A program made the translations under genes and the position numbers. 7,406 nucleotides of DNA. Source: a virus. Taxonomy: Duplodnaviria; Heunggongvirae; Uroviricota; Caudoviricetes. Shown piece after piece: positions 730 to 5,549 of the stretch (the first letter of the stretch is position 1; each line of letters begins with the position of its first letter). The notes below the pieces were generated by a model. That model had not been told where the DNA came from. It made no database searches and saw only the letters and a list, made by a program, of their open reading frames with translations. Location of the stretch: the IMG/VR virus record IMGVR_UViG_2065487007_000059; one strand, given 5' to 3'.

Positions 730-1629
730 TTAAATTGCTGTAGTCGTAAATAATTCATTGAGCATTCGTTTCACGCCAACCTGCCAGTCAGGCAAGACAA
801 GCGCAAAGTTCTGCTGAAATTTTTCTGTATTAAGGCGAGAGTTATGTGGACGACGAGCTGGTGTAGGATAGGCTGTTGTTGGTACTGCGTTGAGCTTGTT
901 GAGTGCAAGGGGAATGCCTGCTTTGCGCGCCTCTTCAAAAACCAGCGCAGCATAATCGTACCAGGTTGTGGTACCACTGGCTACCAAATGGTACAAGCCT
1001 GCGACATCCGGTTTATTCAGTGCGACACGAATGGCATGTGCTGTACAATCAGCCAGCAGTTCAGCACCTGTTGGCGCACCAAACTGATCGTTAATAACCG
1101 CTAATTCTTCACGCTCTTTTGCCAGACGTAACATCGTTTTGGCGAAGTTATTTCCTTTTCCTGCATAGACCCAGCTGGTCCGGAAAATAAGATGCTTCGC
1201 GCAATATTCCTGTAACGCTTTTTCTCCGGCTAACTTGGTTTCACCGTAAACATTTAGTGGTGCGGTTGCATCCGTCTCCAGCCATGGCATATCGCCATTT
1301 CCAGGGAAGACGTAATCAGTCGAGTAATGGATAACCCAGGCTCCAACTTCATTTGCTGCTTTCGCAATCGCTTCGACACTTGTTGCGTTAATTAATTGTG
1401 CAAACTCCGGTTCTGATTCTGCTTTGTCTACTGCGGTGTGAGCGGCTGCATTGACAATAATATCCGGCCGAATGCTTCTTACGGTTTCAGCTACACCTTC
1501 AGGATTACTAAAATCACCGCAATAATCAGTAGAGTGAACATCAAAAGCAATCAAATTACCCAAAGGTGCCAGAGCACGCTGTAGTTCCCAACCTACCTGC
1601 CCTGTTTTGCCAAAAAGGAGGATATTCAT
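730..1629 (-). CDS. rfbD: dTDP-4-dehydrorhamnose reductase (RmlD/RfbD), 299 aa
   Basis: ORF-track 299-aa protein [40 protein letters not shown]... has an N-terminal GxxGxxG Rossmann motif (GKTGQVG). ATG at 1629..1627 overlaps the rfbB TAA stop by 1 nt (TAATG). Stop TAA at 732..730. Confidence 0.93.
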   Translation of the reverse strand: MNILLFGKTGQVGWELQRALAPLGNLIAFDVHSTDYCGDFSNPEGVAETVRSIRPDIIVNAAAHTAVDKAESEPEFAQLINATSVEAIAKAANEVGAWVIHYSTDYVFPGNGDMPWLETDATAPLNVYGETKLAGEKALQEYCAKHLIFRTSWVYAGKGNNFAKTMLRLAKEREELAVINDQFGAPTGAELLADCTAHAIRVALNKPDVAGLYHLVASGTTTWYDYAALVFEEARKAGIPLALNKLNAVPTTAYPTPARRPHNSRLNTEKFQQNFALVLPDWQVGVKRMLNELFTTTAI

Positions 1630-2714
1630 TACTGGCGGCCCTCATAGTTCTGTTCAATCCACGATTGATAGGCACCACTTTTCACATTATCAACCCATTT
1701 TGTATTGGACAGGTACCATTCCACCGTTTTACGAATCCCGCTCTCAAACGTTTCCTGTGGTTTCCATCCCAATGCGCGACCAATCTTCTCAGCATCAATA
1801 GCATAGCGGCGATCGTGTCCCGGACGATCAGCAACATAAGTGATTTGCTCACGATAAGATTTCTCTTTCGGTACAATCTCATCCAGCAAATCACAAATAG
1901 TGAGCACTACATCGATGTTTTTCTTTTCGTTGTGCCCACCAATGTTATAAGTTTCACCCGCTTTACCTTCGGTTACGACGGTATATAACGCACGCGCATG
2001 ATCTTCAACATACAACCAGTCGCGGATCTGATCTCCTTTGCCATAAATAGGTAATGCCTTACCTTCCAGTGCATTAAGAATAACCAGTGGAATAAGCTTT
2101 TCCGGGAAATGATAAGGACCATAGTTGTTCGAGCAATTAGTCACAATTGTCGGTAAACCATATGTACGTTTCCACGCGCGGACTAAATGATCGCTGGATG
2201 CTTTGGATGCGGAATAAGGGCTGCTTGGCGCGTAAGCTGTCGTCTCAGTAAATAAGGGTAATTCTTCTGTATTATTTACTTCATCTGGATGAGGCAAATC
2301 ACCATAGACTTCGTCAGTAGAAATATGATGAAAACGGAAGCTATTTTTCTTGTCGCTATCAAGAGCAGACCAGTAATTGCGAGCGGCTTCCAAAAGGACA
2401 TAAGTACCAACAATATTGGTTTCAATAAATGCCGCAGGGCCTGTAATTGAACGGTCAACATGGCTTTCAGCAGCCAGGTGCATCACTGCATCCGGCTGAT
2501 GCTGAGCAAAAATCCGTGCCATTGCAGGTGCATCGCAAATATCCGCATGTTCAAAAACATAGCGTTCAGAATCAGAAACATCAGCAAGTGATTCCCGGTT
2601 TCCGGCGTACGTTAATTTATCGACATTAACAACACTATCCTGCGTATTATTTATAATGTGACGAACTACAGCTGAACCAATAAATCCTGCGCCACCAGTA
2701 ACAAGTATTTTCAC
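1629..2714 (-). CDS. rfbB: dTDP-glucose 4,6-dehydratase (RmlB/RfbB), 361 aa, GTG start
   Basis: ORF-track 361-aa protein [23 protein letters not shown]... has the [12 protein letters not shown]-binding motif and the YSASK (YxxxK) catalytic motif of short-chain dehydrogenase/reductase family dehydratases. Start codon is GTG at 2714..2712 (plus-strand cac). An upstream ATG in another frame hits a stop after 2 codons. First gene after the JUMPStart leader. Confidence 0.93.
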
Positions 2715-2789
2715 TTAATTTATTCCATATTACTTCAGAGCATGCTGTGAAATAAGCGGCTCTCAGTTTGATTAATAGAGGTATTAATG

Positions 2790-2801
2790 CACGCTACCGC
2801 C
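2790..2801 (-). promoter_or_regulatory. ops (operon polarity suppressor) element, the RfaH recruitment site on the non-template strand
   Basis: Minus-strand GGCGGTAGCGTG at the 3' end of the JUMPStart element matches the ops consensus GGCGGTAGnnTG. Lies 76 nt upstream of the rfbB GTG start. Confidence 0.85.
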
Positions 2802-2828
2802 CCTGGCTTTACAGCTACCAGAGCACTG
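2790..2828 (-). promoter_or_regulatory. JUMPStart element (39 bp) in the 5' leader of rfbB
   Basis: Minus-strand sequence CAGTGCTCTGGTAGCTGTAAAGCCAGGGGCGGTAGCGTG matches the conserved JUMPStart sequence found upstream of polysaccharide gene clusters, as I recall it. It contains two direct copies of GGTAGC (plus-strand gctacc at 2793..2798 and 2814..2819). Confidence 0.85.
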
Positions 2829-2982
2829 CATGCATGCCTATGATGTGACGAGCGTTACCCACTCGCGCTAAACCCGAAAAATTCAAACGCTAATTGTCTT
2901 ACCAATCCGCTCTGGAAACAAGGAAAATCCTGGAAAACTTTGAATAAAACCCTACTGCTAACTCGTTGTTATTCTGATGGTT

Positions 2983-3012
2983 TATATAAAACAACGGCAG
3001 GAAGATTCGCAA
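2983..3012 (-). promoter_or_regulatory. Candidate sigma70 promoter for the rfb operon (-35 TTGCGA at 3012..3007, -10 TATATA at 2988..2983, 18-nt spacer)
   Basis: Hexamers read directly on the minus strand in the galF-rfbB intergenic region, upstream of the JUMPStart element. Motif match only, with no transcript data. Other weak matches exist in this AT-rich region. Confidence 0.25.
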
Positions 3013-3086
3013 CAAATTACTTTTGCTGCGAATTTTCACTGCCGTTATAATTTTCTTATCAACCGTTACATCCGGTCAGATTTTCA

Positions 3087-3980
3087 TTATTCGCTTAACA
3101 GCTTCTCAATACCTTTACGGAACTTCGCCCCTTCTTTCAGGTTGCGTAGGCCATACTTCACAAACGCCTGCATATAGCCCATTTTTTTGCCGCAGTCGTA
3201 ACTGTCGCCGGTCATCAGCATTGCATCAACGGATTGTTTTTTCGCCAGCTCGGCAATAGCATCAGTCAGCTGAATACGTCCCCATGCACCAGGCTGAGTA
3301 CGTTCCAGTTCCGGCCAAATATCGGCAGAAAGCACATAGCGACCTACGGCCATGATGTCTGAGTCCAGCGTCTGCGGCTGATCCGGTTTTTCGATAAATT
3401 CAACAATGCGGCTGACTTTACCCTCACGGTCCAGCGGCTCTTTAGTCTGGATGACGGAGTATTCAGAGAGGTCACCCGGCATACGTTTTGCCAGCACCTG
3501 GCTGCGGCCCGTTTCGTTGAAACGTGCAATCATGGCAGCAAGGTTGTAACGTAGCGGGTCGGCGCTGGCATCGTCGATCACAACGTCTGGCAGTACCACG
3601 ACAAATGGGTTGTCACCAATGGCAGGTCGCGCACACAAAATGGAGTGGCCTAAACCTAAAGGTTCGCCCTGACGCACGTTCATAATGGTCACGCCCGGCG
3701 GACAGATGGACTGTACTTCCGCCAGCAGTTGACGCTTCACGCGCTGCTCAAGGAGTGATTCTAACTCATAAGAGGTGTCGAAGTGGTTTTCGACCGCGTT
3801 CTTGGACGCGTGAGTTACCAGGAGGATTTCTTTGATCCCTGCAGCCACAATCTCGTCAACAATGTACTGAATCATTGGCTTGTCGACGATTGGTAGCATC
3901 TCTTTGGGTATCGCCTTAGTGGCAGGCAACATATGCATCCCGAGACCCGCTACAGGAATAACTGCTTTTAAATTCGTCAT
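3087..3980 (-). CDS. galF: GalF, UTP-glucose-1-phosphate uridylyltransferase paralog (non-catalytic/regulatory GalU-like subunit), 297 aa
   Basis: ORF-track protein [55 protein letters not shown]... The GTG at 3992 lies immediately after AGGTGG with no spacing, whereas the ATG at 3980 sits about 9 nt downstream of AGGTGG, so I call the start at 3980 (MTNLK...). Stop TAA at 3089..3087. Confidence 0.92.
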
Positions 3981-4010
3981 TATTTCATCCACCTGTAAAA
4001 TGGTTGCTGA

Positions 4011-4016
4011 ATTATA
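4011..4016 (-). promoter_or_regulatory. Candidate galF promoter -10 hexamer (perfect TATAAT)
   Basis: Minus strand reads ...GCTGGCGAAAAAAATCGAACAAGC-TATAAT-TCAGCAACCATTTTACAGGTGGATGAAATA-ATG. TATAAT lies about 31 nt upstream of the galF ATG and is preceded by an A-tract. No good -35 hexamer at 16-18 bp spacing (best CTGGCG). Confidence 0.4.
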
Positions 4017-4154
4017 GCTTGTTCGATTTTTTTCGCCAGCATCAATTACCCTGAATTGATTACTGAATTACTTGTGATGTTACGCCGCTTCGTTGTGGAT
4101 TGCAGTAGCATTGTTCCTAAGTATGACTCCATTTTTCCAGGAATGGTCGCAAAT

Positions 4155-5549
4155 CTACTCCCTCAGTTCCGGCAATCTAAAGTTAATCTTCTCCACATTA
4201 ACAATATGGTGATTAATCCTGTCGATATCGACGGAGCTTTGTCCTTTTTCATTCACCGCATGAACATTTGCAAGAGACAGCAGTGTTTCTTTTTTCGCCA
4301 TAAAAACACCACGAACGTCTTTGCGCATGTCAAAGTTCATGCTCAATGCGGGTCCAACTGAGGATTCCTGCATCACATTGATATTTCGCATAAAAAAATG
4401 TTGCGGTTTGTTGTGTAACTCCAGCGACGCACGCTTCATCTCAATGTTAGTTAGCGCCACAAAGGAAACAGCATTCCCGGCGGAGATTTGAATGCCGCGC
4501 AATTTATAAGCAAGATGAGTATTATCCAGTTGAATATCATTCACCCGGAAATTTTGCGGTATCGAGAGATATTTGCCTTTAATTACCCCATAGCCGATTA
4601 ACATCCCGGCGCTATTAATCATTTCAATATTATCAATCACGAAATTGTCACAACCGTAAATAGCGACTGTCGCGTTATCAATGCCCGCTTTCTTACTGAA
4701 ATCCGGCGTGATATTGCGGGCTTTGATATTACGAATAACAAAATGTTTACCATTTTCAACATGTATCAACTGCCGACAATCCGATCCCGTGATATTCGCC
4801 ACGACAAAGTTTTTCACTGCCTGGTCTTCCGGGTAGTTGTTATCATAAGTGCTTCCCGCAAGGCCTATGCCGATGCCCCAGTTGATTTTGCCGTTGGTAC
4901 AGTTGATGCGCTCGATGACATGGTCAGATATCAAAATATCACGGTCGTTAATTGCCACGTTCCATTCAATGGCGTCGCCTTGTAAGTCGCTGAACTTACA
5001 ATTGGTGATGTTGGCACCGATAATCTGGTTATGAAATCCCTGGCGTAAGATGGCGTAATTAGCGTGGCTAACGGTCAGGTTATCGATGATCAGGTTGCGC
5101 ATGACCCGTTTGTTTTTGCCGCCGATATAAATCTGCGTCACCGGGCCAAAGCCGCTCATAGTCAGCCCTTTGATGGTGCAGTCAGAACCACGCACATCCA
5201 GGGTGATGTTATGCATACTGCCGCCATCCTCCCCTGTCACCTGGCTGCCGTCCTGTAAGACAAATCGCCCTCTGCCGTTGCCGCGCAAGCTTCCAAGAAT
5301 GTGTAACGTTTTACCGGGAGGGATAAAGATGCCGGTGTTGATATTGTCACAAACCAATCCGGCAGGCACGACGACTGTTTGCCCTTCGCTGAAGGCTTGT
5401 TTAAATGAGGCGATCCAGTCGTGTGGGTTGTAGTCGTTAATGTTAACGCTTTGTCGGGCGGGAAGCGCGCGGGCGAAAGGGGTATGGAGGAAGGCAAGCG
5501 CCGAGCTTGCCGTCAGGAACGTGCGTCGGGAGAGTTTTTTAAATGGCAT
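4155..5549 (-). CDS. wcaM: Colanic acid biosynthesis protein WcaM, 464 aa, twin-arginine signal peptide plus parallel beta-helix repeats; biochemical function unassigned
   Basis: ORF-track protein [31 protein letters not shown]... has an SRRxFL Tat motif, a hydrophobic stretch and an AxA (ARA) cleavage site. The body carries repeated N-[IV]-x-[IV]-x-N beta-helix-like segments ([52 protein letters not shown]). AGGAGAA Shine-Dalgarno 6 nt upstream of the ATG at 5549; 10-nt gap after the wcaL stop. Confidence 0.9.

Follow-up and report, generated by a model that had tools for sequence, protein, structure and literature searches.

Identity and genomic setting of the element

The stretch of DNA analysed here (7,406 nucleotides, hereafter the window) carries on its minus strand, shortly before the first gene of an O-antigen cluster, a sequence ending in a match to ops, the signal at which RNA polymerase pauses and recruits RfaH. 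The question raised by this locus is whether the match belongs to a genuine JUMPStart/ops element and, if so, what the element does for the genes that follow it. The window is Escherichia coli K-12 DNA, with 100% identity to the K-12 derivatives ER1709 and EC600, and its gene order along the minus strand is wcaK'-wcaL-wcaM-galF-[element]-rfbB-rfbD-rfbA'. Profile searches and annotation place wcaK' at 7349-6777, wcaL at 6780-5560, wcaM at 5549-4155 and rfbD at 1629-730, all on the minus strand, and annotation shows only the start of rfbA' at the window end. The conserved gene upstream of the O-antigen cluster, galF, occupies 3087-3980 (minus strand; NCBIfam TIGR01105, 689 bits; RefSeq), and rfbB, the first rfb gene, coding for dTDP-glucose 4,6-dehydratase, occupies 1629-2714 (minus strand; NCBIfam NF007490, 792 bits; RefSeq start GTG).

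Read directly on the minus strand from 2828 to 2790, the element is the 39-bp CAGTGCTCTGGTAGCTGTAAAGCCAGGGGCGGTAGCGTG, which agrees base for base with the preliminary description of this DNA. Its 3' third is the ops 12-mer GGCGGTAGCGTG (2801 to 2790), an RNA polymerase pause site and RfaH recognition site (PMC5995543, PMC11001881), and it shares its strand with the rfbB coding sequence, which makes it the non-template strand, as ops requires. From the final ops base to the G of the rfbB GTG at 2714 there are 76 nt, with 75 nt in between, and the hexamer GGTAGC occurs twice in direct orientation within the 39 bp (2819 to 2814 and 2798 to 2793), the upstream occurrence repeating the ops core and covering a stem 3' end and loop of the hairpin considered below; the preliminary description had given both of these features correctly. 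The TG dinucleotide formed by T11 and G12, which induces the pause, is at 2791-2790, and the bases of the C3:G8 pair and of the G4-A7 loop with its T6 are in K-12 those of the ops sequence studied experimentally, a comparison that concerns sequence identity only (PMC5995543).

The element lies within the 372-nt galF-rfbB spacer, which is untranslated: no annotated ORF runs over the element, and the mechanically called ORFs overlapping the spacer code for just 23-46 amino acids. One of these, with 23 codons (2815-2886, minus strand), runs from a TTG at 2886 to the TAG within the first GGTAGC and shows no sign of translation; the region around it, upstream of the element, is poorly conserved. 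Base composition showed no sharp boundary at the element.

The 12-mer is found once in the window, as is its 8-mer core GGCGGTAG. Chance alone would supply the 8-mer 0.19 times per window and the 12-mer, with two or fewer mismatches, 0.49 times per window, and ops motifs this short are by themselves poor evidence of identity. For the full-length element, the Rfam covariance model RF01707 (JUMPstart; 38 positions, gathering score 35 bits) matched exactly 2828 to 2790 over its positions 1-38 of 38, with 60.0 bits and E = 3.1e-12, which places the 39-mer far beyond chance. Relative to the Rfam consensus, the K-12 copy has one additional base in the loop and a few differences at 5' positions that are not conserved. 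The element thus belongs to the JUMPStart/ops family in every feature that can be tested in silico, and we put the probability that it is the JUMPStart/ops of the E. coli K-12 O-antigen (rfb) leader at about 96%. Its identification in the preliminary description, as a non-template signal for pausing and RfaH recruitment, accords with the Rfam match and with the comparative data and the literature considered below. Hobbs and Reeves reportedly described the 39-bp JUMPStart element in 1994, just upstream of polysaccharide gene clusters. Given that an element described in 1994 and curated in Rfam, whose K-12 copy has already served as an experimental RfaH reporter, is known textbook biology and not a discovery, the identification carries little weight as a finding. 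Its use lies in annotation: the element shows where the O-antigen cassette has its 5' edge, and it identifies rfb as an operon that depends on RfaH and would otherwise be silenced by Rho.

Conservation of the element in serogroups and paralogs

A 61-nt query around the element had matches in 5426/5426 complete E. coli genomes, at a median of 3 places per genome, and at the rfb position the element is identical or nearly so across thousands of genomes. K-12 itself has two further full-length JUMPstart copies. The first (57.3 bits), ~24 kb upstream on this part of the chromosome, has its end 178 nt upstream of wza. The second (55.2 bits) stops 83 nt short of waaQ and falls within rirA, a gene annotated as a 73-nt sRNA (positions 13167-13239 of the MG1655 locus L003).

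For comparison at the rfb position we chose six strains whose O-antigen cluster begins with something other than rfbB, the first loci being an O8-type wzy, a locus disrupted by ISAs1, the wzx genes of O113, O83 and O166, and a glycosyltransferase gene in O157. The preliminary description had named alignment with equivalent positions in other O-antigen clusters as a check, and the element is present between galF and the first gene in all six (39.9-57.9 bits against the Rfam model). When the six spacers are aligned with that of K-12, the 39-mer shows a mean identity of 91%, and its last 14 nt, at the 3' end, one of 98%. The flanks are less alike, at 60% for the 56 nt immediately upstream and 36% for the 39 nt immediately downstream. 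The 75-nt spacer from ops to the rfbB start (2715-2789, minus strand) is accordingly serogroup-specific, with 31-36% identity to other serogroups. Throughout the 13 copies compared, the block GGGGCGGTAGCGT and the upstream GGTAGC (2814-2819, minus strand) are invariant.

RfaH dependence of the rfb operon

The action of such an element is established by published experiments, which supply the pause at U11, the recognition by RfaH, the RfaH dependence of rfb and an in vivo RNA 3' end at G10 of ops. Published work describes ops as a consensus-type pause signal, which in the non-template strand forms a small hairpin with a flipped T6 that is read by RfaH, and ops alone suffices for RfaH recruitment in vitro (PMC5995543). 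The pause occurs at U11 (PMC11001881); once open, RfaH binds the polymerase and recruits the ribosome through its refolded KOW domain (PMC5995543, PMC11001881). With regard to the operon itself, Belogurov et al. used the ops fragment from upstream of K-12 rfbB as an RfaH-dependent reporter (pGB083) and found ops-containing operons to be enriched for RfaH in MG1655 (PMC2871177), and elsewhere rfb is reported to be up about 300-fold with RfaH and is stated to be silenced by Rho (PMC5449661). In strain CFT073, 8 of 42 potential ops sites give an RfaH ChIP signal, these being only non-template ones in operon leaders, and the bound leaders include those of O-antigen and wza (PMC9765446). According to a review, the operons that depend on RfaH are waaQ and rfb, and RirA, a 73-nt sRNA from the waaQ leader, interacts with RfaH (PMC8745692). 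The RfaH dependence of K-12 rfb is a published property of exactly the CAGTGCTCTGGTAGCTGTAAAGCCAGGGGCGGTAGCGTG element.

Applied to this locus, the mechanism would run as follows. A transcript begun in the galF-rfbB spacer would cross the JUMPStart element, and RNA polymerase would pause at ops with U11 (window 2791) as the last base of the RNA, while the exposed non-template GGCGGTAGCGTG would fold into a tiny DNA hairpin with T6 flipped out. Autoinhibited RfaH would read the ops loop and open, its N-terminal domain clamping the polymerase in place of NusG and its refolded C-terminal domain recruiting the ribosome via S10. Ribosome recruitment would help rfbB, which starts with GTG and has as its sole Shine-Dalgarno-like sequence a weak GGAA. 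The RfaH-modified polymerase would then resist pausing and Rho-dependent termination along the operon, which in MG1655 is rfbBDACX-glf-wbbHIJKL and measures ~11.7 kb from rfbB to wbbL, all on one strand, with a Rho-termination region (Rho score 1.74) at the galF/rfb boundary (PMC7815308). It should be noted that K-12 makes no O antigen, since wbbL is interrupted by IS5 (wbbL::IS5 in the MG1655 annotation), and that the element is accordingly without an O-antigen phenotype in this strain.

RNA 3' ends and the conserved 5' half

The Term-seq data of Adams et al. 2021 contain an RNA 3' end within the rfb leader at 2,113,139 (minus strand; LB, OD 0.4), with the printed context ...GGGCGGTAGC[G]TGCATTAATA (PMC7815308). 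As the tables use NC_000913.3 coordinates, from which the window position is obtained by subtracting 2,110,347, this end corresponds to ops G10 at window 2792. Its Rho score of 1.28 is not significant and its intrinsic-terminator score of 2.83 is below the cutoff of 3. At the waaQ copy, 3' ends are found at both G10 and U11 (3,808,184 and 3,808,183), and none is found at the wza copy in the laboratory cultures used; the main text of that study mentions neither rfbB nor waaQ nor RfaH (PMC7815308). The rfb and waaQ ends are consistent with the published U11 pause, and are equally compatible with paused nascent RNA and with released RNA. At rfb, ops is followed by CATTAATA, with no U-run, and this together with the score of 2.83 suggests that the rfb 3' end may be that of nascent RNA in paused complexes. 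The waaQ ends fall 17-18 nt before the 3' end annotated for rirA (3,808,166). A second Term-seq 3' end from another growth condition is at window 2834 (minus strand), 6 nt 5' of the element, in the context ...CATAGGCA[T]GCATGCAGTG (PMC7815308), and could be a processing site.

The mechanism given above makes use of the 3' third of the element, and the conservation of the remainder raises the possibility that the 5' half also acts as RNA. The Rfam consensus structure has a stem-loop in this part of the element (2803-2821, minus strand), with the arms CUGGU and GCCAG enclosing the 9-nt loop AGCUGUAAA. In the 13 verified copies, the five base pairs of the stem are standard pairs in 65/65 cells, and in two of the five both partners have changed (C-G to U-A, and U-A to A-U), while in a control in which the 3' partner was slid by 1 to 3 columns just 20-60% of the cells were paired. 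As the sample is small, comprising 5 pairs in 13 sequences that are related to one another, this is moderate covariation support for the hairpin. Within the loop, AGC is the same in 13/13 copies, and the stem's 3' arm comes to its end 12 nt upstream of U11 of ops. A gap of 12 nt between hairpin and 3' end is close to the spacing at hairpin-stabilised pauses such as his. We considered a his-type pause hairpin as the role of this stem and assign it a low probability, for it is weakened by the published description of the ops-paused complex as different from pauses of the hairpin-stabilised type (PMC11001881).

In a broader form, the 5' half would have an RNA function besides the DNA-level action of ops, either as an exit-channel hairpin that tunes the pause or limits backtracking, or as a leader RNA that, like RirA, binds or titrates RfaH. 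The covariation, with the hairpin already noted by Weinberg et al. in 2010 (PMC2864571), the spacing to U11 and the invariant loop all speak for such a function, as does the location of the waaQ copy inside the gene for RirA, an sRNA reported to bind RfaH (PMC8745692). The 3' end at G10 in the rfb leader, which would be that of a stable or abundant RNA, also fits, and a 2026 preprint finds the ops pause to be stronger in the native rfaQ leader for reasons that it calls unclear (PMC13596475). However, the ops-paused complex is described as differing from hairpin-stabilised pauses both in biochemistry and in structure, since it is pre-translocated and not swivelled (PMC11001881), ops needs no further sequence to recruit RfaH in vitro, and the hairpin is thermodynamically unexceptional: the fold of the 39-mer is energetically ordinary (z about 0), and the whole putative leader of 179 nt showed no significant structure (z -0.41). 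The rfb copy also differs from that at waaQ, where ops runs into CTTTTTTC and the intrinsic-terminator score is 6.28. On balance we regard an RNA function of this kind as unlikely, and are slightly more doubtful still of its specific version as an RNA-level module, in which the hairpin would set the strength of the ops pause or the depth of backtracking, or the leader would release an RfaH-binding RNA terminated at ops. Were that module real, it would explain the strengthening of the ops pause by the native leader that the preprint leaves unexplained (PMC13596475).

The edge of the O-antigen cassette and the range of the element

Our preferred reading, in which RfaH recognises ops as DNA, is contradicted by none of the data. 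Homology between serogroups ends sharply, within the final one or two bases of ops (window 2790/2791), with the identity falling from 98% to 36% across the boundary, and the end-points of BLAST matches (query positions 410/411 and 50/51) agree with this break, which identifies the element as the 5' edge of the variable O-antigen cassette. Such a boundary is what one would see if the element were foremost a recombination anchor, a patch of homology at the cassette edge through which clusters are swapped between galF/JUMPStart and gnd, with regulation being secondary. Against this, the same 39-mer precedes wza, waaQ and polysaccharide genes on plasmids, which are not cassette junctions of that kind, and the base-specific conservation of ops together with the structure-preserving conservation of the hairpin points to selection on function. 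Furthermore, RfaH dependence has been shown experimentally (PMC2871177, PMC5449661), and a functional patch under constraint would become a recombination boundary as a by-product. We accordingly hold the anchor to be very improbable as the primary role of the element. On the other side of galF, the O157 and O166 strains (positions 1-478 of loci L009 and L010, respectively) have a UDP-GlcNAc-type 4-epimerase gene and not wcaM, indicating that the junction upstream of galF also varies between lineages.

The plasmid copies were confirmed with the Rfam model, and the 3/3 confirmed matches inspected lie upstream of polysaccharide genes. A full JUMPStart is located upstream of an rfbBDA-flippase set on a Citrobacter IncX3 plasmid, beside catA1 and IS1 (L131, 3002-3040), an E. 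coli IncC plasmid carries another ahead of wecB/wecC-type genes that adjoin IS26 (L132, 3001-3039), and a plasmid copy also precedes a Klebsiella galF-cps locus. The presence of JUMPStart on conjugative resistance plasmids means that mobile polysaccharide modules bring an RfaH loading site of their own. A further, weak class of plasmid match (H68/L133; 82.9% identity, E = 9), adjoining an integron integrase, was without an Rfam match and was set aside as chance.

A wider search of 596 Gb of genome contigs used the pattern GGTAGCN{9,15}GGCGGTAG, which specifies 14 bases and a variable gap, and at least 120 matches were listed. Among the matches listed, 15 loci of gammaproteobacterial appearance were re-tested with Rfam, and of these only a Dickeya copy (L084; 51 bits to RF01707) was real; the matches listed for this pattern are almost only chance ones. 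In Xanthomonas (L020, 5985-6057), a tRNA gene begins with the ops-like 9-mer GGCGGTAGC, which illustrates that the short ops core alone is unspecific and that loose ops scans yield mostly chance matches. For the K-12 element, a chance match or an inactive relic is a reading of negligible probability: the low but appreciable expectation for the 8-mer, the occurrence of ops-like 9-mers in unrelated places and the interruption of wbbL by IS5 could be held in its favour, but it is contradicted by the published reporter and expression data (PMC2871177, PMC5449661), in which the K-12 copy itself works as an RfaH-dependent reporter (PMC2871177), by the RNA 3' end found at the pause site in MG1655 in vivo (PMC7815308), and by a 39-mer with an E-value of 3e-12 that is near-identical across thousands of genomes.

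Relationship to other leader signals

The element shows no substantive difference from the O-antigen JUMPStart/ops family (Hobbs & Reeves 1994; RF01707), with which it shares the consensus, the position between galF and the first gene, the strand and the ops 12-mer. The leader of waaQ (rfaQ) has an identical GGGGCGGTAGCGTG and the same hairpin, preserved through the compensatory change of U-A to A-U, and both leaders have RNA 3' ends in vivo in ops, at G10 and U11 in waaQ and at G10 in rfb. They differ downstream of it, in that the waaQ ops leads into a U-run with a terminator-like score and lies within an sRNA gene, while rfb has neither the U-run nor an annotated sRNA. The wza leader, belonging to the colanic acid or group 1 capsule operon, is a full-length paralog, and in CFT073 RfaH binds it during transcription of the operon (PMC9765446); its JUMPStart drives a different operon, from an inducible and normally silent promoter. 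The ops sites of hlyCABD, kps and F-like tra follow the same logic of RfaH recruitment as rfb, although the first gene lies much farther away than in rfb, by 634 bp in hly, whose 39-bp JUMPStart with its ops sits in a long leader (PMC6775461).

Beyond this family, lambda nut/put, the Bacillus EAR/epsC RNA and the targets of LoaP resemble ops in being cis signals in the leader of a long operon that render RNA polymerase resistant to termination, and EAR/epsC likewise precedes polysaccharide operons (PMC2864571). However, the nut/put, EAR and LoaP signals act as RNA, whereas a NusG paralog recognises ops in the form of single-stranded DNA, on the non-template strand (PMC5995543).

Separation of rfb from galF and wca

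The preliminary description had further taken ops as marking rfb as a unit regulated separately from wca and galF. A separate unit is supported in outline by independent evidence: galF has a transcription start site (TSS) of its own, a hairpin with RNA 3' ends follows galF, and a published TSS is attributed to rfbB. The argument from ops itself does not stand, for transcripts reading through from galF would also cross ops, and its presence alone does not mark a separate promoter.

A strong hairpin followed by a U-run lies 39 nt after the galF stop (2991-3048, minus strand; dG -33.6 kcal/mol, z -7.3), and the strongest Term-seq 3' end of the spacer, seen in two conditions, is inside its 3' arm at window 2999 (PMC7815308). 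This hairpin is probably the galF terminator or a stabiliser of the galF 3' end, which would insulate rfb from galF. It is preserved in the O83 spacer, is represented by a 9-bp stem in O157 and is not evident in O166. A scan of 2600-4300 for consensus terminators missed it because of its interior loops.

Kim et al. 2012 list a TSS for galF (56 reads) that falls at window 4004 on the minus strand (PMC3415461), positions in the window being obtained from their NC_000913.2 coordinates by subtracting 2,108,371. Given that galF thus has its own start, it is not simply the tail of the wca operon. The same data assign to rfbB a TSS at NC_000913.2 2111402, i.e. window 3031 (minus strand; a low count of 8 reads), with a 5' UTR of 317 nt (PMC3415461). 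This position is downstream of the galF stop and inside the 5' arm of the post-galF hairpin, and no convincing -10 element was found upstream of it.

The aligned spacers point to a different place. In 7/7 serogroup spacers, TTGTT (2921-2917) and T..T.AG..AAT (2904-2893) are invariant, and the sequence TTGTTT-N17-GACAAT that they delimit (2893-2921, minus strand) resembles a -35/-10 pair and is our candidate promoter for rfb, inferred from conservation; the O157 version of its -10 is GATAAT. The conserved blocks thus disagree with the TSS at 3031 on where the promoter is. A scan of 2600-4300 for consensus sigma-70 promoters and terminators gave nothing above expectation and did not flag the candidate, and the supplementary tables of SMRT-Cappable-seq contain no rows for rfbB or galF. 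Marolda and Valvano are said to have reported in 1998 an O7 rfb leader of 173 nt, which would fit the blocks at 2921-2893. The TSS list of Kim et al. has no entry for this candidate (PMC3415461).

Two minor observations concern the ends of the flanking genes. The longest ORF of galF starts at a GTG at 3992 (301 amino acids), while RefSeq and the NCBIfam profiles, which cover residues 5-301, use the ATG at 3980 (297 amino acids), and the galF TSS at 4004 is compatible with both candidate starts. At the other end, an internal TSS is located at window 1679 (minus strand; 12 reads), 50 nt before rfbD (PMC3415461).
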